DNA of 64,000 nt from Desulfobacterales bacterium (GTDB taxonomy: Bacteria > Desulfobacterota > Desulfobacteria > Desulfobacterales > SG8-13), in NCBI GenBank assembly GCA_051155755.1, contig DAXETY010000042.1, positions 20,367 through 84,366 of the forward strand, given 5' to 3'. The translations under genes and the position numbers were made by a program. Under the pieces are notes generated by a model that worked only from the letters and a program-made list of their open reading frames with translations, was not told the DNA's origin and did no database searches. This document shows, in pieces, positions 12,654-32,298 of the stretch. The first letter of the stretch is position 1; each line of letters begins with the position of its first letter.

Positions 12654-13667
12654 TTAACATATCCGCGGCAGCTGTTCTCCGGTGAGCATGTCGACGATGC
12701 GCTCACCGCCGATGCGGGTCTGCATGAGCACCCGGCTAGGATGCTCCGCTACCACTTCACCGATGACGGCGGCATCCCGACCGAGGGCATCCGCCCGCAT
12801 CGCCGCCAGTACCGCATCGGCTGCATCCGGTGCCACAAAGGCAAGCAGTTTGCCCTCATTGGCCAGGTAGAGCGGGTCGAATCCGAGCAGCTCGCACACG
12901 CCGTTGACTTCGGGTTTAATGGGAATCTGCGTCTCGAAGACGCGCACGCCGACCTGGGATTTTTCGGCGATTTCGTTCAAGGCAGTCCCGATCCCACCGC
13001 GAGTGGGATCCCGCAGCACATGAATCCGGCCGGCGGCGGCATCGAACATGCGGGCCACCATGTGGTTCAGTGGGGCACTGTCGCTGGTCAGCCGGGTTTC
13101 GAATTCAAGGCCCTCGCGCTGGGTCAGTATGGTGATGCCGTGATCGGCCATGGTTCCGCTGACCAGGATTCTGTCGCCGGGCTTCGCCCGGGTGCTGCCG
13201 ACCCGGATGCCTTCGGGGATCCAGCCGAATCCGGATGTGTTGATAAAAATGCGATCCACCGCGCCCCTGGGCACCACTTTGGTGTCGCCCGTAACCACGG
13301 TGACGGCGGCGGTCCGGGCGGCCTGCCCCATCCGCCGCAGGATCGCCTCCAGATCCGACATCGGAAATCCTTCCTCGATGATCAATCCGACACTGAGATA
13401 CTTGGGCACACCGCCGCACATGGCAATGTCGTTCACCGTGCCGTTGATGGCCAGGTCGCCGATGCAGCCGCCGGGGAAAAAGATGGGATCGACGACATAG
13501 GAATCGGTGGAAAAGGCCAGTCGCCGCCCCTCCAATTCCAGGATCGCACCGTCATTGAGCTCGGCCAACACCGCATTGTCAAAAATCGGCAGCAGCAGGT
13601 CCGCCGTAAGGCGATGGGCCACCTTGCCGCCGCTGCCGTGATCGAGCATAATTCGGTCGTCAGTCAT
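12654..13667 (-). CDS. hypE: Hydrogenase maturation protein HypE (carbamoyl dehydratase)
   Basis: MLDHGSGG N-terminal motif, AIR-synthase-like fold and the invariant C-terminal PRIC. The ATG at 13667 overlaps the hypD stop by 8 nt. Confidence 0.92.
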   Translation of the reverse strand: MTDDRIMLDHGSGGKVAHRLTADLLLPIFDNAVLAELNDGAILELEGRRLAFSTDSYVVDPIFFPGGCIGDLAINGTVNDIAMCGGVPKYLSVGLIIEEGFPMSDLEAILRRMGQAARTAAVTVVTGDTKVVPRGAVDRIFINTSGFGWIPEGIRVGSTRAKPGDRILVSGTMADHGITILTQREGLEFETRLTSDSAPLNHMVARMFDAAAGRIHVLRDPTRGGIGTALNEIAEKSQVGVRVFETQIPIKPEVNGVCELLGFDPLYLANEGKLLAFVAPDAADAVLAAMRADALGRDAAVIGEVVAEHPSRVLMQTRIGGERIVDMLTGEQLPRIC

Positions 13668-14781
13668 GGTCTCGTTTCGCAATTCCGGTCGACGAAGTGT
13701 CATAGCGGTAATAGGCTGCGCAGGTCCCCTCGCTGGAAACCATACAGGGGCCCACCGGATCCACCGGCGTGCAGACCGTCCGGTACAGGGGGCATTGGGG
13801 CGGAATCTTGGTGCCGATCAGAATTTCTCCGCAGGCGCAGCCCCTGGGCTCGACTGCCGGTGCGACATCCAGCGCAAAAGCCCGGCGGGCGTCGTGGGCG
13901 GCATATCGCTCACGGATGCTCAAACCGCTGTGGGCAATGGTTCCGATCCCGCGCCAGTTCGCATCCGACACTTCGAAGACCGCGTCCATGATCTTGCGGG
14001 CGGCCGGATTGCCTGCGTCGGTGACGGCCCGACCATAGGCATTTTCCAGGAGCGGGGCCCCGGTTTCGATCTGCTCCACCAGCAAACCGATGCCGCGCAG
14101 CAGATCGACCGGCTCGAATCCGGCCACGACAGAGGGAACCCGGTGTCTTTCGAAAAACGCGCGGTACCCGTCCAGACCGATGATCACCGACACGTGCCCG
14201 GGCAGCAGAAAGCCGTCGATGCCGACGTCACAAAGGGACATGAGCGCTTCCAGGGCCGGCGGCACCAGTTTGTGGGCCGAATAGACGGAAAAGTTTTCGA
14301 CCCCGGTTTGGTCGGCGGCCTGGATCGCGGCCGCAATGGTCGGCGCCGTGGTTTCGAAACCTACCCCGGGAAACACCACCTGCTTGTCCGGATGCTTGCG
14401 GGCGATTTCCAGCGCATCCAGTGTCGAATATACGATGCGCACATCCCGCCCGTTGGACCGTTCGCGCTGCAGGGAACTGCCCGAACCAGGGACCCGCATC
14501 AGATCACCAAAGGTCGTTAAAATCACATTGTCCTGCCGAGCCAGCGCCACGAATGCGTCGATTTCGCCCTGGGCGGTCACGCACACCGGACAGCCCGGTC
14601 CGGACAGCAGGGTTACGGTCTGCGGCAGCAGAGAACGGATCCCGCTGCGAAAAATCGAAACCGTGTGGGTGCCGCACACCTCCATCAAACGCACCGGCCG
14701 GGTGCTAATCGAACGGATTTTCTCCGCCAGCGGCCGGGCCAGATCGGCATCGCGATATTCTTCCATATGTTTCAACGCCAT
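13660..14781 (-). CDS. hypD: Hydrogenase maturation protein HypD
   Basis: 373 aa with MEVCGTHT, GPGCPVCV and the C-terminal Cys cluster (GCACGEIL...). Confidence 0.92.
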   Translation of the reverse strand: MALKHMEEYRDADLARPLAEKIRSISTRPVRLMEVCGTHTVSIFRSGIRSLLPQTVTLLSGPGCPVCVTAQGEIDAFVALARQDNVILTTFGDLMRVPGSGSSLQRERSNGRDVRIVYSTLDALEIARKHPDKQVVFPGVGFETTAPTIAAAIQAADQTGVENFSVYSAHKLVPPALEALMSLCDVGIDGFLLPGHVSVIIGLDGYRAFFERHRVPSVVAGFEPVDLLRGIGLLVEQIETGAPLLENAYGRAVTDAGNPAARKIMDAVFEVSDANWRGIGTIAHSGLSIRERYAAHDARRAFALDVAPAVEPRGCACGEILIGTKIPPQCPLYRTVCTPVDPVGPCMVSSEGTCAAYYRYDTSSTGIAKRDHD

Positions 14782-14857
14782 AATTTTGTTCCGCGAGATC
14801 TATTTTTTTCGGAATGTTATCGATTGCCGTCCGAGGGCGGCAGGCCGTCGCCGTTGG

Positions 14858-17146
14858 CTAGCCCTGCCCGAGCATCGCCGCAGCCGCCACGGCCTGGCCC
14901 AGAGAGATGCCGCCGTCGTTGGACGGCACCTGTCGATTGGCAAGCACTTCGAAGCGCGCAGTTTCCAGCGCCGCCGTCAATCCTTCCAACAGGATCACGT
15001 TTTGAAAAACCCCGCCGCTCAATGCGACCCGGTTCAAACCGGTTTGACGCCGCAGATGCCGGCAGAGGTCGGTAAACAGGTCCACCAGGGTCCGATGAAA
15101 CCGGGCACTGATTTCGCCGACCGAGCGGCCGGCCCCGACATCGGCCGCCACGCCCCGGATGATCGGTGCGGTGGGAATCGAAATCGGATCGCCCGCGCCC
15201 CAGTCGAACGGGTAGGCGCCGGTCTGGGCGATCGAACCCTGCGCAGCCATTTCCAGTTCCATGGCGGCCTGGCCCTCGAAGGCCACTTTGTTTCGCAGGC
15301 CCGTGATCGCGGCCACTGCGTCGAATAAACGACCGAGGCTGGAGGTCAACGGCGCATTGACCCGGCGCCGGATCACCTGCTGCAGCACCCCGCGCCGGGA
15401 TGGCTCGACCACCTTCAGAGGCGGCAGGTCCAGCTCCCACATGGATTCCCCGAAAGCCTCGTAGAGATACGCCAGCGCCATGCGCCAGGGCTCCCGGATC
15501 GCCGCAGTCGCCCCGGGCATGCAGACATATCCCAGGTGAGCGGCCCGTTGAAACCATCCGGTGTCGGCAATCAGGACTTCTCCCCCCCAAACGGCGTGAT
15601 CGGGTCCGTAGCCGGTGCCGTCGAAGGCCAGCCCGATAATCGGGCCGTCGAGACGGTGTTCCGCCAGCACGCTGACGATGTGCGCGTGATGATGCTGAAC
15701 GCCGATTTTCGGCAAGCCGTTCTGCTGCCGGGCCCAGCGGGTGCTGAGATAATCGGGGTGCAGATCGTGGGCAACGGCCTGCGGTGAGATTTCCAAAACC
15801 CGCTGCATGTGTGCAACGGTCAACTGGAAGAAATCGTGAGTGGGTGCGTTTTCCAGGTCTCCGACGTGCTGGCTGACGAAAGCCTGACGGTTGCGGGTCA
15901 GGCAGACGGTATTCTTCAGTTCGGCCCCGACCGCCAGTACCGCCGGCTGTTCGTCTTTCAAAAAAACCGGCACCGGGACAAAACCCCGGGAGCGCCGCAG
16001 CGGCCGGGTTTGACCGGCGGCCCGCCGGACAATGGAATCGTCGCTGCGCAGATAGATGTCGCGGTTGTGCACCAGGAAGCCGTCGGCGATCTGCCCCAGT
16101 CTCCGGAAGGCTTCGTTGTTGTCGATGGCGATGGGCTCTTCGCTGAGATTGCCGCTGGTCATGACCAGAGCGGTAAACCCCCCGTCGAGCAGCAGGTAGT
16201 GCAGGGGCGTATAGGGCAGCATGATCCCGAAATAACCGTTGCGGGGCGATACGGACGAAGCGATGGGATTGGGCTTTTTTTTGTGCAGCAGCACGATCGG
16301 ACGCTGGGGACTTTCCAGCAACCGGGCTTCTTCGGCATTGATCTCGGCCAGCTGCCGCGCGATTTCCAGGTCGGCGCACATCAAGGCCAGGGGCTTTTCC
16401 TCCCGGAGTTTGCGCAGTCGCAACCTTTGCACCGCCATCTCGTTTTCGGCATCCACGGCCAGGTGAAAACCACCCAATCCCTTGACGGCCATCACGGCGC
16501 CGGCCCGGAGCCGTGTGATGGTTTCGGCGAGGGCATCTGCGGTGTCGACGGCAACTCCCTGCCGGTCGTAAAAGTCGATTTGCGGACCGCATGCCCGACA
16601 GGCGTTCGGTTGGGCGTGAAAGCGACGGTCCATGGGATTGTCGTACTCCGCCTGGCATTGCGGGCACATGCGGAAGTGCTTCATGGAGGTTTTGGGCCGA
16701 TCGTAGGGGATGTCCTCGATGATGGTATAGCGGGGGCCGCAGTTGGTGCAGTTGATAAACGGGTAACGGTAGCGTCGATCCTGCGGATCGAAGAGCTCGC
16801 GCAGACAATCGCTGCAGATGGACACGTCCGGCGAAATCAAAGTGGACATGGCCGCTCCGCCGCGACTTTCGACGATGGAAAAGTCCTTGAAGCCGTTGGG
16901 GGAGGCTTCCTGTCGGCGGATTTCGATAATCCGGGCCAGTGGCGGTGGGCTGCCGGTCAGTTCGGCGGTAAAGTCTTCCACCGCATTCATGGGGCCTTCG
17001 ATATGGATCGTCACCCCCGCAGAGGTGTTGGCCACCTGGCCGCGCAGGTTGTGTCGAAGGGCCAGCTGAAATACAAACGGACGAAAACCGACTCCTTGAA
17101 CGATCCCGTTGATTTCCAGCCTAGTGGCGATTTCCGCATCAGTCAT
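14858..17146 (-). CDS. hypF: Carbamoyltransferase HypF
   Basis: Acylphosphatase-like N-terminus (VQGVGFRPFV), two CxxC-x18-CxxC zinc-finger pairs (CSDCLREL...CTNCGPRY; CPQCQAEY...CRACGP), then YrdC-like and Kae1-like domains. The ATG at 17146 matches family N-terminal spacing better than the TTG at 17191. Confidence 0.92.
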   Translation of the reverse strand: MTDAEIATRLEINGIVQGVGFRPFVFQLALRHNLRGQVANTSAGVTIHIEGPMNAVEDFTAELTGSPPPLARIIEIRRQEASPNGFKDFSIVESRGGAAMSTLISPDVSICSDCLRELFDPQDRRYRYPFINCTNCGPRYTIIEDIPYDRPKTSMKHFRMCPQCQAEYDNPMDRRFHAQPNACRACGPQIDFYDRQGVAVDTADALAETITRLRAGAVMAVKGLGGFHLAVDAENEMAVQRLRLRKLREEKPLALMCADLEIARQLAEINAEEARLLESPQRPIVLLHKKKPNPIASSVSPRNGYFGIMLPYTPLHYLLLDGGFTALVMTSGNLSEEPIAIDNNEAFRRLGQIADGFLVHNRDIYLRSDDSIVRRAAGQTRPLRRSRGFVPVPVFLKDEQPAVLAVGAELKNTVCLTRNRQAFVSQHVGDLENAPTHDFFQLTVAHMQRVLEISPQAVAHDLHPDYLSTRWARQQNGLPKIGVQHHHAHIVSVLAEHRLDGPIIGLAFDGTGYGPDHAVWGGEVLIADTGWFQRAAHLGYVCMPGATAAIREPWRMALAYLYEAFGESMWELDLPPLKVVEPSRRGVLQQVIRRRVNAPLTSSLGRLFDAVAAITGLRNKVAFEGQAAMELEMAAQGSIAQTGAYPFDWGAGDPISIPTAPIIRGVAADVGAGRSVGEISARFHRTLVDLFTDLCRHLRRQTGLNRVALSGGVFQNVILLEGLTAALETARFEVLANRQVPSNDGGISLGQAVAAAAMLGQG

Positions 17147-17206
17147 GCTTGCCTGAGACGGCGGCCGCCGGCGCTCCGATTCGGGCCGCAAGCGACCGCC
17201 GGATGG

Positions 17207-17452
17207 TCACGACGGTTCCGGCGCTTGGCCGCCTTCGGCGAATGCGGCGGCTTCCTTTAGAAGCTGAAGCGATTCGCGGGCCGTGGCTTCGTCGATTTTG
17301 TGCAGGGCAAAACCGGCGTGAACGATAACCCAATCGCCCACCGCGGCATCCTCCAGCAGCAGCAGACTGCAGGTGCGTATCACGCCGTCCACGTCAATGG
17401 TGGCCATGCCCTGGTCGATCTTCGTAATTTTGGATGGAATTGCCAGGCACAT
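17207..17452 (-). CDS. hypC: Hydrogenase maturation chaperone HypC/HupF family
   Basis: 81 aa starting with MCLAIPSKI, the invariant N-terminal Cys2 motif. Confidence 0.9.
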   Translation of the reverse strand: MCLAIPSKITKIDQGMATIDVDGVIRTCSLLLLEDAAVGDWVIVHAGFALHKIDEATARESLQLLKEAAAFAEGGQAPEPS

Positions 17453-17455
17453 CGG

Positions 17456-17953
17456 TTAATTGGAAACCTTTCTGTAAGTAACGCCCAGATTTTCGAGCTC
17501 ATCGAGCACCATCGCAATCACCGCTTCGACGCGCGCCTCGGTGGTGGGGGTCAGATCGAGGCACAGCGTTTCGATGTCCTCGGGTTCGATTCCGATGATC
17601 ACCGGCTCCGGAACATGATCCAGGGCCTGGCACAGCGTCAGAGCCTCCAGGAAATCCACCTGGTGCAGTGAATTCTTGGCCCGGATCCGGTTCGGCACCG
17701 CATCGCCCTCGATCCGATACAAATCGCCCGGCTTTCCCCGGTTGCGAATCGCATCCACAACGATCAGGTGCTTGGGCTGGGATATGACACCCAGCAGATT
17801 GACACCCAGTACCCCGCCGTCCACGAGCAGCACCTCGTCCGGAAACTCATAGCGCGCCTGCATGCGCTCGATCACCCGCACGCCGAACCCTTCATCGCTG
17901 TAGAGTGTGCAACCGATGCCCAGTACCATAATTTCCGGCGGTGGCGTATGCAT
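17456..17953 (-). CDS. [NiFe] hydrogenase maturation endopeptidase (HyaD/HybD family)
   Basis: VLGIGCTLYSDEGFGVRV...LLVDGG...LIVVDA...HQV matches the family. It lies directly after the large subunit gene. The start is uncertain (17953 or 17929). Confidence 0.85.
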   Translation of the reverse strand: MHTPPPEIMVLGIGCTLYSDEGFGVRVIERMQARYEFPDEVLLVDGGVLGVNLLGVISQPKHLIVVDAIRNRGKPGDLYRIEGDAVPNRIRAKNSLHQVDFLEALTLCQALDHVPEPVIIGIEPEDIETLCLDLTPTTEARVEAVIAMVLDELENLGVTYRKVSN

Positions 17954-18102
17954 GAACCTGAACGGTCCTCTCGATGATCTCGTCAATTACACTACAAAAT
18001 AAAACCGGTTTGGCCGTTTTCAATCGGGCAAACCGGAAATCGCAAAAGCCAAAACGATGTTCGTTCCGGCCCCCTGAAACAGGGGGCCGGAACGAATCGA
18101 TA

Positions 18103-19752
18103 TCAGATCACCTTGATTTTGTAGACTTCGTTGGATTCCGGATCGATCACGTGCACGCCGCAGGCGATGCAGGGATCGAAGGAATGCACGGTCCGCAGCA
18201 CTTCGAGCGGTTTCTTGGGGTCGGCGACCGGCGTTCCGATCAGCGACTCTTCCACCGGACCGAGCTTGCCCTTGTCATCCCGCGGTCCCAGGTTCCAGGT
18301 GGATGGGACCACGTACTGGTAGTTGGCGATCTTTTTGTCTTCGATGCGAACCCAGTGTCCGAGCGCGCCGCGAGGCACGTCGTTCAGTCCGACGCCCATG
18401 CCGCTGTCCGGTATCTCGTAGGGCTCGTAAGTTGCCACGTTGCCGGCCTTCAGGTTGTCCACCAGCTCGCCCACCCAGCCCTGCATGGCTTCTCCGATCA
18501 CCACGGTCTCGATCCCGCGGGCGGCGGTGCGACCCAGAGTGGAGAACAGGTGCTTGGGTTCGATGCCGAGTTTCTGGAAGACCGCGTTGACCGTGGCCAC
18601 GATGTCCTTGTGCCCCCTGCCGTAAGCGACCAGCACCCGGGCCAGCGGCCCCACTTCACAGGGTTCACCCTCGTAGCGCGGCGCCTTGAACCAGGTGTAC
18701 TGACCGTCGCCGGGCCGGTACTCGGGATTTTCCTGCAGCGGCCGAGTTTCGCCCTCGTAGGGATGCTTGGCGGCACCGCTTTCGTACCATCCGCGGCTGA
18801 CGTCTTCGGTGACCTTGTCCTGGCTGGCCATGTGGATTTTGCCCAGGTCCCGGTTCTTGATGATTCCGCGGGGAAAGAACAGGCTCTCGGGCTCCTGGTC
18901 GCTCTGGGGAAATTCGCCCCAGGCCAGAAAGTTGGTGGTTCCGCCGATGGCACCCCAGTCCTTGTAAAAGGAAGCCACCGCCAGCAGATCCGGAATGTAG
19001 ACGTTTTTGACGAAATCCTGGGTTTCCTTGGTAATGTACAGGAATTCGGCAATGCGGTCCGGGGACAGATCGCGGGCGGAGGTTACGCCGCCAACCGTCA
19101 GGGATTGCGGGTGCGGGTTCTTGCCGCCGAAAATTGCGTGCATCCGGGCCGCCTTGGCCTGCAGCCGCAGCGCTTCGATGTAGTGGGCGGTGGCAATCAG
19201 GTTGGCCTCCGGTGGCAGCTTGTAGGCCGAGTGTCCCCAATAGGCATTGGCGAACGGACCCAGCTGGCCGCTCTCCACAAAGGTTCTCAGACGCTGCTGC
19301 ACGTTTTTAAAATAAGTTACTCCGCCCCAGGGTGCGTTGCTGACGTTGTCGGCCAGCACCGCGGTCTTGGCCGGATCGGCGTTCAAGGCGCTGACCACGT
19401 CAACCCAATCCAGGGCATGCAGGTGATAGAAGTGCACGATGTGATCGTGCTGGAACTGGGCGCCCATCAAAAGATTGCGGATAATTCGTGCATTTGCCGG
19501 AACTTTGATGCCAACGGCATCGTCGACTGCCCTCACCGAGGACAGAGCATGGGTGTACGTTCAGACGCCGCAGGAGCGCTGCACGAAATGATGGGCGTCG
19601 CGGGGATCCCGTCCCTGCAGGATCATTTCGATCCCGCGGAACATCTGCCCCGAACTCCAGGCATTGACGACCTTGCCTCCGGCAACTTCCACTTCAATGC
19701 GAAGGTGGCCTTCAATGCGGGTAATCGGATCGATTACAACTCGTTGCGCCAT
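18103..19752 (-). CDS. [NiFe] hydrogenase large subunit (periplasmic group-1 type): one 549-codon frame with a single in-frame TGA at 19561-19563, a candidate selenocysteine codon
   Basis: Track ORFs 19561..19752 and 18103..19536 are in the same frame. The N-terminus is [15 protein letters not shown]...QRSCGV[TGA]TYTHALSS and the C-terminus is [12 protein letters not shown] followed by a cleavable extension. The Tat-signal small subunit gene is upstream and the protease gene is downstream. Confidence 0.85.
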
Positions 19753-19809: not shown

Positions 19810-20757
19810 TTAGAATTCCTCATAGAATGGCGTGAAATTGTCCCAGAAGGCGGGTTCGCTGCAGCCGATGCACGGAGCTCCGGCCTGAACCGGCCAGCTG
19901 GTGCCGTCGTTGAACTTGGCGATCGGGCAATTGTTGTAGGTTTCGGGGCCGCGGCAGCCCACCGTGTAAAGGCACCAGCCGAGCCGTGCGCCTTCGTCGT
20001 CGAACTGCTCCACGAACTCGCCGTTTTCGAAATGCGAGCGTCGCGGGCACTGATCGTGGACGGTCTTGCCGTAGGCAAACATCGGCCGGCCGAGACTGTC
20101 GAGCGCCGGCATTTTGCCCAGCAGCAGGTAGTTTACCACCGTTCCGACGAAATTCACCGGGTTCGGAGGGCATCCGGCGATGTTGACCACCTGCATTCCC
20201 AGAGCTTCCCCAACGCCCTTGTAGCCGCCGGGATTGGGTGCTGCAGCCGGGACGCCGCCGAAGTTGGCACAGGCTCCGATTGCGATAACGCCGGCGGCTT
20301 TCGGGCAGACCTCCTGGGCGATTTCCAGAAAGGTACGTCCGCCGACTTTTCCGTACCCGCCGTCGAACTTGGTCGGGATGGAGCCTTCCACCACGCAGAT
20401 GAACTTACCGTTGTATTTCTCCAGGGCTTCCTGCAGCTGCCGTTCGGCCTGGTGGCCCGTAGCGGCCATGATGGTTTCATGGTATTCCATGGAGATGATT
20501 TCCAGCAGCAGCTCATCGATCCAGGGGTACATGGTTCGCAGCGTGGCTTCGGTACAGCCGGTGCACTCACCGAAATGCAGCCAGATCACCGGTGGACGCT
20601 GCTTGGGGGCGGCAAACACCTCGGCCACTTTGGGGACAAATGAAGAAGACAGCCCCATGGTCGCAGTGAGAAAGGTGCAAAACTTCATGAAGTCTCGCCG
20701 TGTCACACCTTTCTGCGCCAACCGCTCGTAAAATTGTTTTTCCTTTTCCATCGGCAC
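19810..20757 (-). CDS. [NiFe] hydrogenase small subunit, Tat-exported
   Basis: Twin-arginine signal ([10 protein letters not shown]), proximal-cluster motif ([12 protein letters not shown]) and C-terminal Fe-S Cys ligands (CPRRSHFE...GCRGP...CIGC). 315 aa. Confidence 0.92.
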
Positions 20758-21053: not shown

Positions 21054-21527
21054 TCAGCTTTCTTCGTCGATGTCTCCGTATTCGTCGTCGGCCACTTTCA
21101 GTGACGAATTGAGGTTGCCGATCTCGTCTTTTTCCTCGTATTCGTCTTCAAAATCTTCCGCAAGCAACTCATCGAGGTCATCGGAATCGGCTTCCAGGTC
21201 GGTTTCAAATTCCTCGTCTCCCCTTTCCCGGGAAAGCAATTCGAGGTCATCGAAAAACAGCTCGGAAGTATCCCGATCTTCGGATTTGAGCATCTCCAGG
21301 ACGGCCACGGCGATGCGTTCGGCATAGGGGCCCGGCGGGTACATGTTCTTGGTTCGCAGGGCCGCAAGCAACGCATCCTTGCCGGCCGATGCCGCGGAAC
21401 GGATGTCCGGGACCTGGTAGGTTTCCTCGCACAGGGGCGAAAGGATGTCCTTATCGAGTTCGGCGAACTCCCGCAGGGTAATGGTCTTTTCCTGGCTGTT
21501 CAGGGTGATTTCATATTTCTGTTTCAT
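21054..21527 (-). CDS. Hypothetical protein with an extremely acidic C-terminal tail
   Basis: About 157 aa from the ATG at 21527 (MKQKYEITLNS...). The C-terminal 70 residues are dominated by D/E (DLELLSRERGDEEFETDLEADSDDLDELLAEDFEDEYEEKDE...). I recognise no family. Confidence 0.5.
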   Translation of the reverse strand: MKQKYEITLNSQEKTITLREFAELDKDILSPLCEETYQVPDIRSAASAGKDALLAALRTKNMYPPGPYAERIAVAVLEMLKSEDRDTSELFFDDLELLSRERGDEEFETDLEADSDDLDELLAEDFEDEYEEKDEIGNLNSSLKVADDEYGDIDEES

Positions 21528-21659
21528 GAATTGGACCCTTCCAAAATACGGTTTCATTAAGCATTTAAAGAGATCATACTCCAACAAGGGTGTCAAGCTT
21601 CTTTCTAAAACGGCGGCCCGCCGCTACTGCGCGGTTTCGGTGTCCGGTATGGTTTTGTA

Positions 21660-21706: not shown

Positions 21707-21796
21707 GGAGGGATGGCTGAGCGGTCGAAAGCGGCGGTCTTGAAAACCGTTGAGGGTTTACGCCCTCCGTGGGTTCGAATCCTACTCCCTCCGCCA
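21707..21796 (+). tRNA. tRNA-Ser (anticodon UGA), long variable arm, CCA encoded
   Basis: Acceptor GGAGGGA/UCCCUCC, anticodon loop CUUGAAA, long variable arm (UGAGGGUUUACGCCCUCCG), T loop UUCGAAU, then G-CCA. Confidence 0.9.
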
Positions 21797-21839
21797 CTTG
21801 GCTTTACCTACATATCCGCCAATACATCGTAAACTACCC

Positions 21840-21932
21840 GGAGAGATGGCCGAGTCGGCTGAAGGCGCTCGCCTGCTAAGCGAGTGTGCGGTGAAAGCTG
21901 CACCGAGGGTTCGAATCCCTCTCTCTCCGCCA
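21840..21932 (+). tRNA. tRNA-Ser (anticodon GCU), long variable arm, CCA encoded
   Basis: Acceptor GGAGAGA/UCUCUCC, anticodon stem CUCGC/GCGAG with loop CUGCUAA, long variable arm, T loop UUCGAAU, then G-CCA. Confidence 0.9.
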
Positions 21933-22788: not shown

Positions 22789-23076
22789 ATTCGACAGAAA
22801 TTATATAAACAAATCCGATGTGAAGTCAACAACCACCCGCTTCGCGGGTGGCTTAAATTTTCTTGCTGCGGCACTCGCCGCCGGCAAGAAAGGACCGAAG
22901 CACGGTTGTGCTTCGATGCTGAACTTGCACCGGGTGTGTAGCACCCGGTTTGGGCAAGAATCAAGGAGAATCGATCGGTGTCCTTTGTATTTTCCCAACA
23001 ACCGGCAGGCGATTTTCCGCCCTGCTCAGAGCGGAAATGCGCCCGAATGCCGTTCCCCGCAGAGCCCCAAATTCGC

Positions 23077-23106
23077 TTGACAAACCGGCTTTGTTTAGAC
23101 TAATCA
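23077..23106 (+). promoter_or_regulatory. Candidate sigma70-type promoter for sat (TTGACA-18 nt-TAATCA)
   Basis: Perfect -35 at 23077-23082 and -10 at 23101-23106, about 78 nt upstream of the sat ATG. Confidence 0.4.
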
Positions 23107-23183
23107 TACCATTTTTAATGGTCTGTGCAGGCAATGGGTGGCACGACAACCCGAAAAAATACAATGAAAGGAGATCAGAGCAC

Positions 23184-24458
23184 ATGTCACAGTTAATCCC
23201 CCCCCATGGCGGAAAGGGCCTTACGAAGTGCCTGTTGGAAGGCAGCAAGCGTGAGGAGGAGCTGAAGAAGGCACAGGGTCTGAAAAAAGTCCCTGTTTCG
23301 CCCCGGGTCCTCGGCGACCTGATCATGATCGGCATCGGCGGCTTCAGCCCCCTGACGGGCTTCATGACCAAGGCGGATTGGAAAGGCGTTTGTGAAAAAT
23401 ATCTGCTGGCCGACGGCACTTTTTGGCCGGTGCCGGTATGCCTGGACGTTTCCAAGGAGCTGGCCGGCTCGATCGGCGAGGGCGAGGAGATCACCCTGTT
23501 CGATCCCAAAACCGACCAGATCATGGCCACCATGAAGGTGACCGAGAAATACGAGATGTCCGAGGCCGACAAAAAATTCGAATGTGAAAAGGTCTACATG
23601 GGTGAAGGCACCCCCTCGGCGGACGAATTCTGGAAAATCGCCATGGAAGATCATCCCGGCGTCGCCATGGTCATGGATCAGCGGGAATTCAACCTGGCCG
23701 GCCCGGTCAAGGTGCTCAGTGAGGGGCAGTACCCCACCAAATATGCCGGCATCTATCACCGTCCGGAAGAATCCCGAAAAATTTTCGAGGAAAAAGGCTG
23801 GAAAGAGATTGCCGCGCTGCAGCTGCGCAACCCCATGCACCGCTCCCACGAATACCTGTGCAAGATCGCCGTGGAAGTCTGCGACGGCGTTTACATTCAC
23901 TCGCTGGTGGGCAACCTCAAGCCCGGTGACATCCCGGCCGATGTGCGCGTTAAATGCATCGACGCGCTGGTCAAAAACTATTTCGTGGCCGACAACGTGG
24001 TCCAAGGTGGCTACCCGCTCGACATGCGTTATGCCGGCCCCCGCGAAGGCCTGCTGCATGCCGTGTTCCGTCAGAACTACGGCTGCTCGCGCATGATCAT
24101 CGGTCGTGACCATGCCGGGGTGGGCGATTTCTACGGCATGTTCGAGGCCCAGACCATTTTCGACAAGATTCCGAAGCCCGAGGGCGAAGGCAAGGCCCTT
24201 CTCTGCGAACCGCTGAAGATCGACTGGACCTTCTACTGCTACAAGTGCGACGGCATGGCTTCCCTGCGCACCTGCCCCCACGGCAAAGAAGACCGCGTGC
24301 TGCTGTCGGGCACCATGCTGCGTAAGCTGCTGTCCGAAGGCGGCCAGCTGCCGGATCACTTCGGCCGCGATGAAGTTGTCGCCATTCTGCGTGAGTACTA
24401 CGAAGGCCTCACCGAGAAGGTGGCGATCAAGACCCACAAGGCGGCCACCGGCGAATAA
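23184..24458 (+). CDS. sat: Sulfate adenylyltransferase (ATP sulfurylase)
   Basis: 424 aa from the ATG at 23184 (RBS AAAGGAGA). [10 protein letters not shown]..., [11 protein letters not shown] and IGRDHAGVG are the conserved ATP-sulfurylase motifs. It is adjacent to aprBA-qmoABC. Confidence 0.95.
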
Positions 24459-24482
24459 TTCACCGGCCCGTCTTCGAAAGGC

Positions 24483-24521
24483 AAAAAAAGGGAGTTCGGC
24501 ATTGCAGCCGGCTCCCTTTTT
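24483..24521 (+). terminator. Intrinsic terminator after sat
   Basis: AAAAAAAGGGAG...CTCCCTTTTT hairpin with a 3' T-run, 25 nt after the sat stop. Confidence 0.7.
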
Positions 24522-24653
24522 GGTTCCGAGACCCTCACTTCGCTAAGCGGCGATCCGAAGGGAAAGGTACTGTGCCGCCGGCAGGAATCGCGCCTGTGAT
24601 GCTCCCTTGGCTCGCTTCACGGGTCTTTTCGAGGGCGATGGCACATCCAACAC

Positions 24654-24690
24654 AAAAAGGGAGGCGCCGAGGCGGCCTCCCTTTTGTTTC
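24654..24690 (-). terminator. Intrinsic (bidirectional) terminator after qmoC
   Basis: AAAAAGGGAGGC-gccgaggcg-GCCTCCCTTTTGTTT. The stem is flanked by A and T runs and lies about 30 nt beyond the qmoC stop. Confidence 0.7.
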
Positions 24691-24715
24691 GAAAATGGAT
24701 AACGCTCCATTCGAA

Positions 24716-25867
24716 CTACTGGCGGTTGGTGTATTCCGCATACGCCATGGCCACCGTCCGGTATACCAGGTGGGCCAGCTTGGAAAACGGCAGATATGCA
24801 AACAACATGAACACGAACACCAGATGGACGAAATAGGTCCAGTACGTCACGTACCGCCACTCGGCCAGCCGGGTGACTTGGGCGCCCATGCCGGTGACGC
24901 CCAGCGCGAACACCAGCCCCAGCAGGTACCAGTCGAAGTAGCTGCTGGTTTCCTGCTCTTTTTTGCGGCGTTGTTGGATCAGCATCCAGCCGCCGATGAT
25001 CAACGCCACGCCGCCGGCATTGGCCAGCCACTTGATCGGGTTGAGCTGAGAATAGGGCCCGTGGATCTGCAGGATGTACAGGGCCACGAAAAAGCAGCTG
25101 GTGACGATGAACAGGGCGATAAAGGAGAACAGCACCAGCAGGTGGGCGGTGCTGCGGTCCTTGTTTTCACCGCATTCGTTGAACCGATCATGTTTCAAAA
25201 TGGTCGGAATGACCCGCACCAGGGACTGAATAAAGCTGCCGGCGTTGAATTCCTTGTTTTCGGCTTTGCCGGTGGCGATGGCCGAAGCGTGCATATCGCC
25301 GATAAAGCGTTTTAGTCCCAGCGCGAAAACGGCCACCGCCCAGATGGAAAGCGGCACAAAGATAATGTCCACCAGCCAGGTGGAAAAAAAGTCGGCATGC
25401 GCGATTTTACCGGTGGCCGGCGGTGTAAAGTTGAGCCAGTCGATCCCGGCGGCTTTCAGCAGCAGCCCCAATGCCACCATAATGACCGCGGGAAGCAGAA
25501 ACAGTATCGGCAGCTTGGAAGGATCGGCCACCCATTTGGCCAGGAATTTGGGCGTGGCGTACTCCTGGATGGCGTAGGCCCGAATGGCCGCCATGACATT
25601 GCCCGGTTTGGCACCCCGCGGGCACAGCGTGGTGCAGTCTCCGCAGTTGTGGCAAAGCCAGATGTCGTAATCGGGCACCAGCCGGTCTTTCAAGCCCCAG
25701 GATGCCGCAATCATCTCCTTGCGCGGAAACGGTTTGTTGTCGGGCGAGATCTTACAGGCCACCGAGCAGGTCGCGCACTGGTAGCATTTTTTCAGGTCCC
25801 CGCCGCCGAGTTTGCCCACCTCCTTGATGAAACTGAGATCCGGCTCCAGCGTTGTTGTCTCTGCCAT
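24716..25867 (-). CDS. qmoC: Quinone-interacting membrane-bound oxidoreductase subunit C (HdrC-like Fe-S domain fused to an HdrE/NarI-like cytochrome b membrane domain)
   Basis: The N-terminus has two ferredoxin-type motifs (CYQCATCSVAC, CHNCGDCTTLCP), followed by multiple TM helices. It lies after qmoA-qmoB and downstream of aprBA. Confidence 0.9.
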   Translation of the reverse strand: MAETTTLEPDLSFIKEVGKLGGGDLKKCYQCATCSVACKISPDNKPFPRKEMIAASWGLKDRLVPDYDIWLCHNCGDCTTLCPRGAKPGNVMAAIRAYAIQEYATPKFLAKWVADPSKLPILFLLPAVIMVALGLLLKAAGIDWLNFTPPATGKIAHADFFSTWLVDIIFVPLSIWAVAVFALGLKRFIGDMHASAIATGKAENKEFNAGSFIQSLVRVIPTILKHDRFNECGENKDRSTAHLLVLFSFIALFIVTSCFFVALYILQIHGPYSQLNPIKWLANAGGVALIIGGWMLIQQRRKKEQETSSYFDWYLLGLVFALGVTGMGAQVTRLAEWRYVTYWTYFVHLVFVFMLFAYLPFSKLAHLVYRTVAMAYAEYTNRQ

Positions 25868-25927
25868 ATCATACCTCCTGCGATACCGGATCGTCCGCAG
25901 ATGCAGACGATCCGGTCCTTGAATATG

Positions 25928-28264
25928 TTAGAAGCCCTTAAACGGGTTGGGTCCGAGCGCCTCGATGGATTCCACGAAATCGTTGATGACCTGTGGAATC
26001 TTGTCGTATTCGTCGATGGCCAGGGTGAACTGGGCCACGCGTTCATTCTCCAGGGCCAGGCTGGCCAGCGCATCGCCGATTTTTTTGATCCGGATGTCGG
26101 CCAGCTCACTGCCCTTGATGAAGTGGCACTGATAATCATCGCCGTGCTTGCAGCCCAGCAGGAAGACCCCGTCCATACCCTGGGACAGCGCATCCTTGAT
26201 CCAGATCACGTTCATGGACCCCAGGCAGCGAATCGGAATGATACGCACGTCGGCTGAATAGGAAAGGCGATTCAAGCCGGCGATGTCCAGCGCCGGATAG
26301 GCATCGTTTTCACAGACCAGGCCCAGAATCCGGAAGGGCGGCTCTTCGTAGTCGTCCTCGGAGGGCACTCCGATGGCCTTGACCATGGAGCCGATACTGT
26401 CGATGTTGTAATCGGCAAAACCGATAATGCGCTCCGGGCAGGCGCCCATACAGGTTCCGCAGCGGCGGCATCGGGCAGGATTCGGCTTCGGGGTGCCCTT
26501 GGCGTCGTCGTCGATGGCTCCGAACGGGCACTCTTCGGTGCAGCGTTTGCACTGGGTGCAGCGTTGAAAGAAGAAGTCCGGAAAGGTCAGGTCCCCGGAA
26601 CGCGGATGCACGGCCACCCCGCGGTTGACAGACTCGATGCACTGGATGGCCTTCAGGGCCGCACCGGCGGCGTCGTCGATGCTGTCTTCCACGGTCAGGG
26701 CCCGGCGCACACCACCGGCGGCGTAGATGCCGGTTCGCTGGGTTTCGTAGGGAAAACAGATGTAGTTGGAATCGACATAGCCGTCGAACAGGTCGATGTC
26801 ACGGAAACCCGGCCCCTGGCGATAGGCCATGTTCACCACCGGATCATCCTTGGTGGCCGGCACCATGCCGGCGGCCAGCACCACCATGTCGGCGTTGACC
26901 CTCAGCGTTTCTCCGAGCAGGGTATTTTCGGCTTCCACGGCCAAACCGTTTCCGTTGCCGGAAACACGCAGCACGCTGCCCTTGGTCATGAAGACGCCCT
27001 CGTCCTGCTGAACCGCCTTGTAGAACAGCTCGCTCAGCCCCGGAGTGCGCATGTGCTGATAGAAAATATAGGCCTTACCGTCTTCGGGATAGTCTTCCCG
27101 CACGTACTTGGCCTGTTTGAGGGCCACCAGGCTGGTCACGCCGCCGGCGTATTCGAAGTCCTGGTCTTCTTCTTTTCCCGGACTCTGGACGAATACCACC
27201 GACTTGGCTTCCCGGCCGTCGGAGGGGCACGTAATTTTGCCATTCTTGGCAATGACTTCGAACTCGGCATTGGTTACCACGTCGGGCAGATCGACCCCAA
27301 GGTGCGCATATCGCTCCCCTTCGAGTTTGGCCGGTCGCCATCCGGCCGCCAGGATCACGGCACCGTATTTTTCGCCGTTGGGATCGAGGGTCAGAATGTC
27401 CCGCCGGCCCTCGTTGTACTCCATAAATTTTTGGTGCAGGGCTTCGGCGTCGAGTTCCTTGCCGTTTTCGTCAACCTTCATCTCTTCGGGCAGCGGATAG
27501 GGCACGTCGAACTCGATTTTCTCACCGGGTTTTTTCAACGTCACCGTAAAATTGCCCGGCTCTCCCGCCAGACGCGCCACCATCGTTTCGGTTTTCACAG
27601 TGATGCGCGGGTGGTCCTGGACGGCCTTGATTTTTTCCTGGATCACCGGCGGGCTCAACTCCAGGTAGGGCGTGCCCAGGGGCAGCTGTTTGCGCCATTG
27701 ACGGGCATGCCCGCCAAGCTCGGCTTCTTTTTCCACCACGGTGACATCATAGCCGGCTTTGGCGGCATCCAGCGCGGCGCTCAGACCGGTGATCCCGCCG
27801 CCGATGACCAGGATGCGACGATTGAAATTCTCCACCTGATAAGGCTCGGGCAATTTGCATTTTTCAACCCGCGCCATGCCCATCTTAAGGTAATCTTCGG
27901 CCAGCATCTGGACCCGGTCGAAATGGACCCCGTCGTCTTTCTGATCTTCGGCCAGGGCCGGAAACTCGGAGCGGGGATGGGACCAGACGACCTGTTCGCG
28001 CAGGTTGACCCGGTCGACGATACAGCCCGGAAACCGGAACACTTCCCACATGACGCGGCGCGAGCAGGCCGCAAGCACCATCGAGTTGATGCCTTTCTCC
28101 TCGATGTCTTTTTGAATCAAGGCCACGCCTTCCTTGCCGCAAAACATCGGATGCGTCTGCACCGGATGACCTTCTTCCTCGGCAACCCCTTGGAGGGCTT
28201 CGATGTCGAGGGCGTCTCCGATGCCGCAGCCTGTGCAGATATACACACCATATTTTTTATCCAT
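25928..28264 (-). CDS. qmoB: Quinone-interacting membrane-bound oxidoreductase subunit B (HdrA-like flavoprotein with Fe-S clusters and an MvhD-like C-terminal domain)
   Basis: 778 aa with an FAD dinucleotide fold (VIGGGITGLSAALDAAKAG), ferredoxin motifs (CTQCKRCTEECP, CRRCGTCMGACP) and a C-terminal MvhD-like region (LGCKHGDDYQCHF). Confidence 0.9.
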   Translation of the reverse strand: MDKKYGVYICTGCGIGDALDIEALQGVAEEEGHPVQTHPMFCGKEGVALIQKDIEEKGINSMVLAACSRRVMWEVFRFPGCIVDRVNLREQVVWSHPRSEFPALAEDQKDDGVHFDRVQMLAEDYLKMGMARVEKCKLPEPYQVENFNRRILVIGGGITGLSAALDAAKAGYDVTVVEKEAELGGHARQWRKQLPLGTPYLELSPPVIQEKIKAVQDHPRITVKTETMVARLAGEPGNFTVTLKKPGEKIEFDVPYPLPEEMKVDENGKELDAEALHQKFMEYNEGRRDILTLDPNGEKYGAVILAAGWRPAKLEGERYAHLGVDLPDVVTNAEFEVIAKNGKITCPSDGREAKSVVFVQSPGKEEDQDFEYAGGVTSLVALKQAKYVREDYPEDGKAYIFYQHMRTPGLSELFYKAVQQDEGVFMTKGSVLRVSGNGNGLAVEAENTLLGETLRVNADMVVLAAGMVPATKDDPVVNMAYRQGPGFRDIDLFDGYVDSNYICFPYETQRTGIYAAGGVRRALTVEDSIDDAAGAALKAIQCIESVNRGVAVHPRSGDLTFPDFFFQRCTQCKRCTEECPFGAIDDDAKGTPKPNPARCRRCGTCMGACPERIIGFADYNIDSIGSMVKAIGVPSEDDYEEPPFRILGLVCENDAYPALDIAGLNRLSYSADVRIIPIRCLGSMNVIWIKDALSQGMDGVFLLGCKHGDDYQCHFIKGSELADIRIKKIGDALASLALENERVAQFTLAIDEYDKIPQVINDFVESIEALGPNPFKGF

Positions 28265-28280
28265 GGATCATCCCTCCTAG

Positions 28281-29558: not shown

Positions 29559-29638
29559 GCTGTCCTCCGTGAAATCGTTTGAGTCGCTTCGATCACGATG
29601 ATCGGAGCCGTGCGATCTTCGGGCGATATCCCTGGATT

Positions 29639-29685
29639 CGAAACTCGAAACTCGAAACTCGATACCGCTCCAGTTTCCAGTTCCC
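29639..29685. repeat. Heptamer repeat block: 3 x CGAAACT followed 9 nt later by 2 inverted copies (CAGTTTC, CAGTTCC)
   Basis: Read directly: CGAAACTCGAAACTCGAAACTCGAtaccgctcCAGTTTCCAGTTCCC, in the aprA-qmoA spacer about 80 nt upstream of the qmoA ATG. Confidence 0.7.
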
Positions 29686-29746
29686 AATTCCGAAGCATAC
29701 AGACATCGCCCAAAGAATTCGCCGAAAAAATCAGAGCCTGTTTACG

Positions 29747-29784
29747 AAAAACCTCCAGGTGCCAAAAGACACCTGGAGGCTTTT
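29747..29784 (-). terminator. Intrinsic terminator/attenuator hairpin after aprA
   Basis: The minus strand reads CCTCCAGGTG-tcttttgg-CACCTGGAGG followed by TTTTT, 37 nt after the aprA stop and before qmoA. Confidence 0.75.
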
Positions 29785-29815
29785 ATGCTGCAGTTACATC
29801 ACAGGGGTCTCCCGA

Positions 29816-31795: not shown

Positions 31796-31860
31796 ATTCC
31801 ATCCTCCTTGATATCATGATTGGTTCAAATCCAATTTCCGTGTGACTGTTCCCGAAACGA

Positions 31861-32298
31861 TCAGACCGTTGCCTGGGGTTTCGGCATCTGATAGCCGTCG
31901 GCTTCCTCGGTGGACAGCAGCGGGCTTTCCAGGTCCTGGCCTTTCAGGCTGCCGTACTCGTTGGCGGCGCCTTCGGGGGTGGTCCGGATGGGGAACTTGA
32001 AGCGTTTGATGAGTCCATTGCGGAACTTGCAGGTCCACATCACGTCCTCGGTACCCAGCATGGGCATGATGCTGCTTCCAAGCGGCACAAAGTCGGCATA
32101 GCCGCGGACTTCGATGGCCTGGGTGGGGCAGATCTTGACGCAGGAGAAACATTCCCAGCACTGGTCCGGTTCCTGGTTGTAGGCTTTCATGGCGTCCGGA
32201 TCGAGCACCATCAGATCGTTGGGGCAAATGTACATACATGCCGTCTTGTCGCCGCCCTTGCAGCCGTCACACTTTTCATCGATAACATACGTTGGCAT
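31861..32298 (-). CDS. aprB: Adenylylsulfate (APS) reductase beta subunit
   Basis: 145 aa. MPTYVIDEKCDGCKGGDKTACMYICPNDLM and CWECFSCVKICP are the two [4Fe-4S] motifs. The C-terminal tail is typical of AprB. Confidence 0.95.
   Translation of the reverse strand: MPTYVIDEKCDGCKGGDKTACMYICPNDLMVLDPDAMKAYNQEPDQCWECFSCVKICPTQAIEVRGYADFVPLGSSIMPMLGTEDVMWTCKFRNGLIKRFKFPIRTTPEGAANEYGSLKGQDLESPLLSTEEADGYQMPKPQATV

Follow-up and report, generated by a model that had tools for sequence, protein, structure and literature searches.

A putative selenocysteine at a Ni-Fe bridging position of a Hyn-type uptake hydrogenase in Desulfobacterales

Can a termination codon that lies exactly on a metal ligand of a [NiFe] hydrogenase be read as an amino acid, and which amino acid would that be? 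The question is raised by a 64,000-nucleotide stretch of a Desulfobacterales genome (hereafter, the window), in which the hydrogenase large-subunit gene contains a single in-frame TGA, located at the second Cys of the RxCGxCxxxH motif. Here we argue, with considerable confidence, that this TGA (19563..19561) would be a SECIS-directed selenocysteine (Sec) codon, and that the resulting Sec64 would occupy a bridging position in a periplasmic uptake hydrogenase of the Hyn type.

An interrupted large-subunit gene and its operon

Around the codon, the minus strand reads CGC TCC TGC GGC GTC TGA ACG TAC ACC CAT GCT, i.e., R S C G V * T Y T H A. The two called open reading frames that flank it, 19561..19752 (63 aa) and 18103..19536 (477 aa), share one reading frame, as the initial annotation of this DNA had pointed out, and once joined they constitute a large subunit of 549 codons. 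Its relevant elements, with the putative Sec written as U, are the following:

18103..19752, minus strand: complete gene of the [NiFe] hydrogenase large subunit, with the internal UGA taken as a codon (549 codons, followed by the terminator TGA)
19561..19563, minus strand: in-frame UGA, codon 64 of the large subunit (from the sequence, the alignment with 2frv_L and the orthologs)
19549..19578, minus strand: N-terminal Ni-binding motif R59-S-C61-G-V-U64-T-Y-T-H68 (RxCGxUxxxH)
18151..18177, minus strand: C-terminal Ni-binding motif DPCIACGVH (Cys528, Cys531, His534), with Cys throughout

The large subunit scores 601 bits against the NCBIfam model NF033181. An ungapped alignment to 2frv_L, in which query residue 3 faces chain residue 7, superimposes the TGA on Cys68 of D. 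gigas and the preceding Cys on Cys65, and thus agrees with the equivalence to Cys68 that had been proposed for the second Cys of RxCGxC. Cys68 of D. gigas is a ligand that bridges Ni and Fe. The C-terminal signature, for its part, is intact and uses Cys, also as first described. Mature PDB chains align as far as residue 534 of the query, and the 15-residue extension found beyond His534 would presumably be cleaved off by the maturation protease.

TGA is also the terminator of the large-subunit gene itself and the normal terminator in 11 of the 24 other well-supported genes of the window. The recoding would therefore be local, and a global reassignment of UGA is ruled out. When the window was scanned for other split reading frames joined by TGA, none was convincing besides the hydrogenase, most of the candidates being antisense frames, spurious frames in GC-rich sequence or ordinary gene ends. 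No further selenoprotein gene was recognised in the window.

The surrounding genes follow the order small subunit, large subunit, protease and hypCFDE, and all of them are intact, in agreement with the initial annotation:

19810..20757, minus strand: hydrogenase small subunit with a Tat signal (TAT_signal_seq match, hydA model)
17456..17986, minus strand: hydrogenase maturation endopeptidase of the HycI/HynC type
17207-17452, minus strand: hypC
14858-17191, minus strand: hypF
13660-14781, minus strand: hypD
12654-13703, minus strand: hypE

The match of the small subunit to the hydA model extends from position 2 to position 309 of 365; therefore the C-terminal part, taken to include the membrane anchor, is absent, and no gene for cytochrome b, HybA or HybB was found in the operon. 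The best PDB matches of the large subunit are the Desulfovibrio HynB chains 1h2a, 1frf and 2frv (E = 1e-217 to 1e-205), as against 1e-159 for Hyd-2, 1e-154 for Hyd-1 and about 1e-103 for the NiFeSe chains. Altogether, these comparisons point to an uptake hydrogenase similar to Hyn of Desulfovibrio, soluble and exported to the periplasm by the Tat route; it would be Group 1b-like, the subgroup being assigned by nearest neighbour only. The hydrogenase genes adjoin the sulfate-reduction genes sat-aprA-qmoABC of this Desulfobacterales sulfate reducer.

The downstream hairpin and the codon in orthologs

The segment that follows the UGA comprises two elements:

19546..19560, minus strand: 15 nt that separate the UGA from the stem and encode T Y T H A, variable at synonymous sites
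19527..19545, minus strand: candidate SECIS hairpin with an 8-bp stem, CUGUCCUC/GAGGGCAG, and the apical loop GGU (ViennaRNA fold and comparison)

A hairpin at 19527-19545 had already been proposed, as a stem of 7 bp with a 5-nt loop starting 16 nt after the UGA. Its location stands, while its geometry is revised: ViennaRNA favours 8 bp and a GGU loop over 7 bp and a 5-nt loop, and the stem begins 15 nt 3′ of the UGA. The distance from the UGA to the start of the loop is 23 nt; the range that bSECISearch uses for this distance is 16-37 nt. Its sequence is GGU, or GGC in five genomes, and its positions 1 and 2 are G in every aligned sequence. [quoted passage not shown]

Taken in isolation, this fold says little. 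The 67 nt after the UGA fold no better than shuffled sequences (z = -0.91), so the single-sequence fold is uninformative alone and the caution initially expressed, that a hairpin by itself is weak evidence, was right. Rfam returned neither a SECIS nor any other relevant family for the whole window at the gathering threshold, and only noise matches, without SECIS, for 19450-19620 at E <= 10. To our knowledge, Rfam contains no general model of the bacterial SECIS.

The comparison with orthologs is far more telling. In related GTDB species-representative genomes, 78 loci had a readable site, and the aligned codon is TGA in 58 of them (71-84% amino acid identity to the window gene) and TGC or TGT in the other 20. 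TGA is found as well in three independent metagenome contigs (87-91% amino acid identity). All 58 complete Sec-type genes carry exactly one internal stop, together with a Cys-containing DPCxxC motif. Between the window gene and 57 Sec-type orthologs, pS and pN are 0.66 and 0.07 upstream of the TGA (median dN/dS 0.05), and 0.71 and 0.12 downstream of it (median dN/dS 0.08), values by which the coding sequence is judged to be under purifying selection on both sides of the codon. Furthermore, among the best 120 of the 1261 protein clusters that match the 63-aa N-terminal piece, 106 are exactly 63 aa long, all end at the ...CG-x residue just before the Sec codon, and 116 do so in R[STA]CGV.

The constraint on the hairpin follows the codon. 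The stem is paired at 8/8 positions in 56 of 58 TGA orthologs and at 7/8 in the other two, while the 20 Cys-codon orthologs reach 6/8 at most. Third-position entropy over codons +6 to +11 is 0.00 bits in 62 Sec-type genes versus 1.4-1.9 bits in 20 Cys-type genes, and pS falls to 0.044 across the hairpin versus 0.66-0.71 in its flanks. Cys-type genes encode the same LSSVRA peptide over this region, with codons that are scrambled and a stem that is lost. The initial annotation had named TGC-bearing relatives with the same downstream sequence as the observation that would speak against its reading; in the relatives with a Cys codon, the downstream codons differ and the hairpin is absent. It had also suggested looking for base pairs that covary only in TGA-bearing genes. 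The nucleotide-level constraint is limited to those genes. The stem is almost invariant, and therefore true covariation is confined to one pair, the closing pair (CG in 25 aligned sequences, UG in 7 and a compensatory UA in 1). Mean folding energies, -11.2 kcal/mol in Sec-type versus -8.6 kcal/mol in Cys-type genes, discriminate poorly in GC-rich sequence, and the useful measure is the register-specific pair count. On this comparison of TGA and Cys-codon orthologs, the putative SECIS hairpin is more than a product of chance.

Alternative readings of the UGA

In the proposed mechanism, the hairpin located 15 nt downstream would act as a bacterial SECIS during translation of the large-subunit mRNA, recruiting SelB-GTP-Sec-tRNA(Sec) to the ribosome with the UGA in the A site. 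The result would be a full-length precursor of 549 residues with Sec64 in RSCGVU-TYTH, which would undergo Hyp-dependent insertion of the cofactor and then lose its C-terminal extension beyond His534. The selenolate of Sec64 would replace the thiolate equivalent to Cys68, one of the two bridging ligands of Ni and Fe, and the remaining three ligands, Cys61, Cys528 and Cys531, would stay Cys. The core of the initial annotation, a UGA decoded through a SECIS as Sec at the bridging Cys68 position, is thus strongly supported by the comparative evidence.

The host presumably encodes SelB and tRNA-Sec. In the 64-kb window and about 0.5 Mb of ortholog loci, none of selA, selB, selD and tRNA-Sec was found; the search covered some 45 window ORFs with NCBIfam and Pfam for the three protein genes, and the window plus 60 ortholog loci for the tRNA. 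A weak selB match of the infB product reflects the shared GTPase domain only and was discarded, and a syntenic pair of tRNA-Ser genes, with anticodons GCU and UGA that read AGY and UCA, does not represent suppressors. At the level of the lineage, a survey found 10 of 11 Deltaproteobacteria to be rich in selenoproteins (PMC1794560).

Could the TGA be simply an error of sequencing or assembly, or a recent nonsense mutation of TGC, the gene being a fresh pseudogene and the hairpin a reflection of coding conservation? The initial annotation had kept this alternative, and it is true that TGA is one base away from TGC and that the hairpin of a single sequence is statistically ordinary. Nevertheless, the comparative data exclude it, leaving it a negligible probability: the same TGA recurs in three contigs and 58 species-level genomes obtained in many studies with many assemblers, the reading frames are otherwise intact with dN/dS of 0.05-0.08 on both sides, the downstream nucleotide sequence is absent from Cys-codon relatives, and the 63-aa fragments ending here make up 106 of the best 120 (of 1261) clusters. 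We consider just as improbable a true stop at the UGA and a large subunit built from two chains, the 63-aa peptide and a 477-aa product whose translation would start from the GTG at 19536; the analogy would be with Methanococcus, whose VhuU is a peptide of its own. These are exactly the ORFs that gene callers report, and methanogens offer a precedent in VhuA/VhuU (PMC13188914). However, the GTG sits in the loop and 3′ arm of the hairpin, without a ribosome-binding site, and a break at this point would leave three ligands in the active site. Moreover, between TGA and GTG lie nine codons whose amino acids (TYTHALSSV, with the invariant His of RxCGxCxxxH among them) are conserved while codons +1 to +5 vary synonymously, and which must therefore be translated; termination followed by re-initiation would also leave unexplained why the nucleotides of the hairpin are frozen. 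A large subunit made of two polypeptides was rejected on these grounds.

A subtler possibility is that the same SECIS/SelB recoding takes place, but that some or all of the residues delivered are Cys, brought by tRNA-ReC, a tRNA(Sec)-like tRNA that CysRS charges. The product would be either an ordinary [NiFe] hydrogenase with Cys only or a mixture of the two forms that depends on Se. In some Sec-using bacteria, tRNA-ReC does place Cys at a SECIS-directed UGA (Takano et al., 2026; PMC13582414). The comparative data speak for SECIS-dependent recoding and are silent on which aminoacyl-tRNA is delivered. Because some Sec-using bacteria carry tRNA-ReC, the chemical identity of residue 64 is given here as a prediction. 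Against this alternative, tRNA-ReC is said by Vargas-Rodriguez et al. to co-occur with canonical tRNA-Sec rather than to replace it, and neither the window nor the ortholog loci showed a tRNA-ReC gene. In addition, if only Cys were inserted, there would be no obvious benefit in keeping a UGA and a costly invariant SECIS in at least 58 species, since one change from TGA to TGC or TGT suffices and about 20 lineages have made it. We thus regard Cys delivery as improbable and take Sec to be the residue inserted at the UGA, whose selenolate would bridge Ni and Fe.

Relation to known hydrogenases

Among enzymes of known structure, the closest to the window enzyme are the HynAB hydrogenases of D. vulgaris Miyazaki F (1H2A), D. 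gigas (2FRV) and D. fructosovorans (1FRF), which match over the full length and align without gaps over the first 130 residues. They share with it an anchorless Tat small subunit and a C-terminal extension cleaved after His. Unlike the product of the window gene as read here, HynAB uses four Cys as metal ligands. The classical Group 1a [NiFeSe] hydrogenases (Desulfomicrobium baculatum, 1CC1; Hys of D. vulgaris Hildenborough) likewise belong to the periplasm of sulfate reducers and have Sec, introduced through UGA and SECIS, as one ligand of Ni. Nevertheless, their Sec is at the first, terminal Cys of the C-terminal motif, DPUxxC, whereas the window gene has DPCIACGVH and its predicted Sec is at the N-terminal bridging site. 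Identity with Hys was rejected, given the DPCxxC of the window and of 58/58 complete Sec-type orthologs, and the NCBIfam HysA model NF045518 gives 425 bits for a cut-off of 780; that the layout is not the classical one had been correctly recognised from the start.

Sec at N-terminal positions is not without antecedents. Group 4 [NiFeSe] hydrogenases have N-terminal CXXU, UXXC or UXXU motifs, and they resemble the present genes in several respects: a SECIS-like stem-loop, whose apical loop has a conserved G, occurs within about 50 nt, Sec and Cys forms are interspersed in the tree, and Cys-type relatives have lost the SECIS features (Takano et al., 2026; PMC13582414). They are membrane-bound, energy-converting and multisubunit enzymes, and rare, about 0.2% of the group (PMC13582414), whereas the window enzyme would be a soluble periplasmic Group 1 heterodimer whose Sec form is the majority in the sampled clade. 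A CxxU motif was described in FrhA (Zhang and Gladyshev, 2007; PMC1976440), and substitutions of a bridging Cys have been referred to as "purported examples" (Evans et al., 2021; PMC8020662). According to a citing paper, Baltazar et al. listed in 2011 (Eur J Inorg Chem; cited in Takano et al., 2026; PMC13582414) three sequences with N-terminal CXXU, two of Group 1 and one of Group 3, predicted to carry a Sec that bridges Ni and Fe. As conveyed by the papers that cite it, the Group 1 part of that set resembles the window enzyme in that it is periplasmic, its predicted Sec occupies the second, bridging position of the N-terminal motif and its C-terminal motif contains Cys only, and the window gene, with C61-G-V-U64, very probably belongs to it. 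The difference is one of extent, two Group 1 sequences there as opposed to 58 species-level genomes here, in which the SECIS is defined and conserved; a literature search for the organisms that carry those two sequences yielded nothing more specific.

The engineered C79U variant of E. coli Hyd-1 has Sec at the equivalent bridging position (Evans et al., 2021; PMC8020662). It retained 13% of native H2 oxidation, the best of four Cys-to-Sec variants, with a lowered Km for H2, and was almost inactive at 10% O2 (PMC8020662). The substitution is artificial: a UAG/EF-Tu system was used to introduce it into a Group 1d enzyme that tolerates O2 (PMC8020662). Together with the Baltazar sequences, as far as the citing papers present them, it means that a bridging Sec had been described before, contrary to the impression given in the initial annotation. 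The variant is uninformative on a protein matrix that has co-evolved with Sec.

As far as we know, the biochemical and structural knowledge of [NiFeSe] hydrogenases was obtained entirely with enzymes whose Sec is the terminal ligand of the C-terminal motif; we know of no study of a natural enzyme with bridging Sec, for which the engineered E. coli variant would be the only experimental proxy. Judged from the sequences compared, the bridging-Sec form does exist in nature at the level of the gene, strongly selected, equipped with a well-defined SECIS and common in uncultured sulfate reducers, and this gene set provides natural sequences with which to ask about the role of Se at the Ni-Fe bridging position.

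The near-identical SECIS string of all Sec-type genes suggests a single origin, and the scattered Cys-type genes within the clade would correspond to repeated Sec-to-Cys reversions or to gene transfer. We lean slightly towards a broader view, in which the CxxU form with a bridging selenolate would be the majority, and probably ancestral, Hyn-type uptake hydrogenase across a large environmental clade of Desulfobacterales and related Desulfobacterota, having arisen once, since all Sec-type genes share one SECIS, and having undergone some ten reversions to Cys, unnoticed because gene callers split the genes into fragments of 63 and 477 aa. If this were true, there would exist a second natural class of [NiFeSe] hydrogenases, abundant in sediments, in which H2 affinity, bias and sensitivity to O2 and sulfide would be set by a bridging rather than a terminal Se. 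Public annotation systematically presents these genes as a 63-aa fragment and an N-terminally truncated 477-aa protein; therefore, surveys of hydrogenases in sediments and metagenome-assembled genomes would miscount or misclassify them, and the selenoproteome counts of Desulfobacterota would be underestimates.

The in-frame TGA of the large-subunit gene

Re-reading of the minus strand upholds the initial annotation: the sequence runs CGC TCC TGC GGC GTC TGA ACG TAC ACC CAT GCT (R S C G V * T Y T H A). The TGA occupies 19563..19561, and the ORFs called here, one of 63 aa (19561..19752) and one of 477 aa (18103..19536), share one frame. Translated as a whole, 19752..18103 encodes a [NiFe] hydrogenase large subunit of 549 codons, interrupted by a single stop at codon 64 and with the C-terminal DPCIACGVH intact. 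Over its N-terminal 130 residues it matches D. gigas HynB (2frv_L; query 3 = chain 7) with no gap, so that the preceding Cys corresponds to Cys65 and the TGA to Cys68. It is established structural knowledge, credited to Volbeda et al. (1995), that the thiolates of Cys68 and Cys533 form the bridge between Ni and Fe.

In a protein search, the five database entries nearest to the window ORF (87-99% identity) all share its exact truncation, and every full-length match at ≤80% identity has Cys at the site; the DNA of three metagenome contigs behind truncated entries carries the same TGA. A GTDB scan with one genome per species gave 80 loci at 71-84% amino-acid identity. Of the 78 with a readable site, 58 have TGA as the aligned codon (Sec-type) and 20 have TGC or TGT (Cys-type); this ratio of about 3:1 is biased, since a Sec-type query was used to pick loci by similarity. 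Each of the 58 complete Sec-type genes contains a single internal stop, and its DPCxxC motif is of the Cys form; with the window and the three contigs, the Sec-type set comprises 62 sequences.

Substitution rates of the window gene against 57 Sec-type orthologs
Codons 1-63, upstream of the TGA: pS 0.66, pN 0.07, median dN/dS 0.05
Codons 80-179, downstream of the TGA: pS 0.71, pN 0.12, median dN/dS 0.08

These rates indicate that both sides of the TGA are translated and under purifying selection, which excludes a pseudogene as well as the TGC-to-TGA sequencing error or recent nonsense mutation previously entertained as the alternative. A global reassignment of UGA is rejected too, given that TGA terminates 11 of the 24 well-supported window genes, this one included.

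With the 63-aa N-terminal piece as query, 1261 protein clusters were retrieved at E ≤ 1e-10. Among the best 120 of them, 106 are exactly 63 aa long, and every one of the 120 terminates at the CG-x residue that directly precedes the Sec codon (116 in R[STA]CGV); public gene calls thus keep many such genes as two fragments.

The hairpin downstream of the TGA

The hairpin (19545..19527, minus strand) begins 15 nt past the TGA, and both ViennaRNA and RNAalifold favour an 8-bp stem, CUGUCCUC/GAGGGCAG, with loop GGU. Folding of the window sequence alone is no better than shuffles (z = -0.91). Third-position entropy over codons +6 to +11 from the TGA (L S S V R A) is 0.00 bits in the 62 Sec-type sequences, against ~1-2 bits nearly everywhere else and 1.4-1.9 bits at the same codons of the 20 Cys-type genes, and pS over the hairpin (0.044) lies some fifteen-fold under the flanks. 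All 8 stem pairs can form in 56 of the 58 Sec-type genes, and 7/8 in the remaining two. Its closing pair is C-G in 25 cases, U-G in 7 and U-A once (compensatory), while the loop becomes GGC in five genomes at the cost of a Val-to-Ala change. Loop positions 1 and 2 are G, invariant among the aligned sequences, in agreement with the G that bacterial SECIS elements conserve in their apical loop (Takano et al., 2026; PMC13582414).

Whether TGC relatives share these downstream nucleotides had been raised in the initial annotation. They do not, none pairing above 6/8 and the codons being different, which favours recoding. For the Arg in the 3' arm, Sec-type genes always use the rare codon AGG, and Cys-type genes mostly CGN. 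Furthermore, Leu70 and Ser71, which the SECIS constraint would fix, are invariable in Sec-type genes; Cys-type genes vary (L/I/V and S/A).

In a rough NJ tree the Sec and Cys forms are intermixed, with ~11 changes by parsimony and Sec at the midpoint root. Because the SECIS string is essentially identical in every Sec-type gene, the simplest reading would be that the form arose once and that reversion from Sec to Cys, or gene transfer, then took place repeatedly.

Some Cys-type loci (L059, L065, L083, L056) carry partial hairpins with 5-6/8 pairs, e.g., CTGTCTTCGGTCAGAGCCG, in the 19 nt that correspond to 19527-19545 of the window. Decaying SECIS remnants are described in other selenoprotein families, and these partial forms are consistent with such remnants after Sec-to-Cys reversion.

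Enzyme type and genomic neighbourhood

The operon annotation bears out the earlier statement that the small subunit, protease and hypCFDE are intact, and a sulfate-reduction set (22950-31795) lies within a few kb.

Features of the hydrogenase operon and of the adjacent sulfate-reduction set
12654-17452 (-): hypC, hypF, hypD, hypE
17456-17986 (-): maturation protease, HycI-type
18103-19752 (-): large subunit, read through the TGA
19810-20757 (-): small subunit, Tat signal
22950-24458 (+): sat
24716-25867 (-): qmoC
25928-28264 (-): qmoB
28281-29687 (-): qmoA
29816-31795 (-): aprA

Among solved structures, the closest matches come from the periplasmic [NiFe] hydrogenases of Desulfovibrio (E = 1e-217 to 1e-205 for D. 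vulgaris MF, D. fructosovorans and D. gigas), with E. coli Hyd-2 (1e-159) and Hyd-1 (1e-154) far behind. A Group 1a Hys identity is rejected, classical [NiFeSe] structures matching at only 1e-103. The small subunit matches the hydA model, which has 365 positions, from 2 to 309 only, so the C-terminal portion of the model, taken to include the anchor of membrane-bound enzymes, is absent. Judged by these matches, the enzyme is a prototypical Hyn-type (Group 1b-like), periplasmic hydrogenase.

The presence of sat, qmoCBA and aprA implies a sulfate-reducing host, and in the genome scan the nearest genomes to the window are Desulfobacterales MAGs. The ORF at 31816-32266, directly upstream of aprA in the expected place of aprB, has no Pfam match in the frame tested.

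A tRNA-Ser pair (anticodons UGA and GCU; 21707-21932, +) adjoins the operon. It is also present in most of L001-L058, the fetched loci that include the three metagenome contigs (L001-L003), ~2-2.5 kb upstream of the small-subunit gene, and in the majority of Sec-type and of Cys-type loci alike, which makes this a case of conserved synteny. Both encode ordinary serine tRNAs, the anticodon UGA reading UCA, and a tRNA-Sec identity is rejected. Between the pair and the small-subunit gene lies a conserved ORF (21054-21596, -) with a very acidic, D/E-rich C-terminal half and no Pfam or NCBIfam match; 157-aa homologs occur in L001 (7969-8442), L002 (7992-8465) and L003 (450-923). Lacking CxxCH motifs, it is rejected as a cytochrome c3 partner.

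Upstream of the Sec-type operon, L001 (2101-7287) and L002 (3362-7473) carry a second, Cys-type [NiFe] hydrogenase (RICGICSTAH), absent from the window, then a multi-PAS histidine kinase and a response regulator; together they look like an H2-sensing regulatory hydrogenase module. Its large subunit in L002 is called as 194 aa only and may be disrupted. Near the apr/qmo cluster, three small, paralogous, putative metal-binding ORFs, 32807-33559 (+), 34567-35349 (-) and 35439-36053 (-), match PF03692 (CxxCxxCC putative zinc- or iron-chelating domain), the last one weakly.

Decoding of the UGA and precedents

The sequence comparisons show that the UGA of this Hyn-type periplasmic hydrogenase is genuinely SECIS-directed. 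The enzyme is of a kind known but barely characterised, and the best explanation is standard bacterial Sec insertion. SelB with Sec-tRNA(Sec) would be recruited to the UGA by the hairpin; maturation of the full-length precursor would then fall to the co-encoded Hyp proteins and protease, with a cut after His534 (solved mature chains align up to residue 534 only), and Sec64 would take the place of the bridging Cys68 thiolate. The sel genes (selABCD, tRNA-Sec) were found neither in the 64-kb window nor in the fetched loci; the lineage is known for large selenoproteomes (PMC1794560).

The main remaining rival is the insertion of Cys at the same UGA by tRNA-ReC, a general caveat raised by Takano et al. 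(2026; PMC13582414). The two called ORFs could also be taken as a split enzyme of two polypeptides, but this is rejected, as the stretch from the TGA to the called GTG start shows conservation at the protein level and that start itself sits within the hairpin.

A bridging Sec had been considered undescribed; there are, however, earlier reports. According to Takano et al. (2026; PMC13582414), Baltazar et al. (2011) had noted N-terminal CXXU, with Sec predicted as Ni-Fe bridge, in two Group 1 and one Group 3 sequences; Takano et al. themselves add 27 sequences of Group 4. CxxU was reported in FrhA (Zhang and Gladyshev, 2007; PMC1976440). Evans et al. (2021; PMC8020662) mention "purported examples" of the bridging substitution and made E. 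coli Hyd-1 C79U, at the homologous position, which kept 13% of native activity, the best of four variants, with lower Km for H2 and poor O2 tolerance. The hydrogenase mentions retrieved from a 2026 review of prokaryotic selenoproteomes (PMC13188914) include no passage on the bridging-Sec form, and no systematic Group 1 survey was found in the literature searched. Specialists in hydrogenases or selenoproteins would not find the existence of the form a great surprise. Its scale, however, may be new: within the Desulfobacterales clade as sampled it is the majority form, with a single conserved SECIS and a systematic annotation split. Moreover, natural sequences make the role of selenium at the bridging position directly testable.

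SECIS-constrained codons aside, the protein position most strongly tied to the Sec/Cys state is residue 67 (19552-19554, -), three residues past Sec: Thr in 46 and Ile in 11 Sec-type orthologs, Val in 14/20 Cys-type orthologs and in the Desulfovibrio structures. This difference might reflect adaptation to Se as the larger atom, or simply phylogeny.
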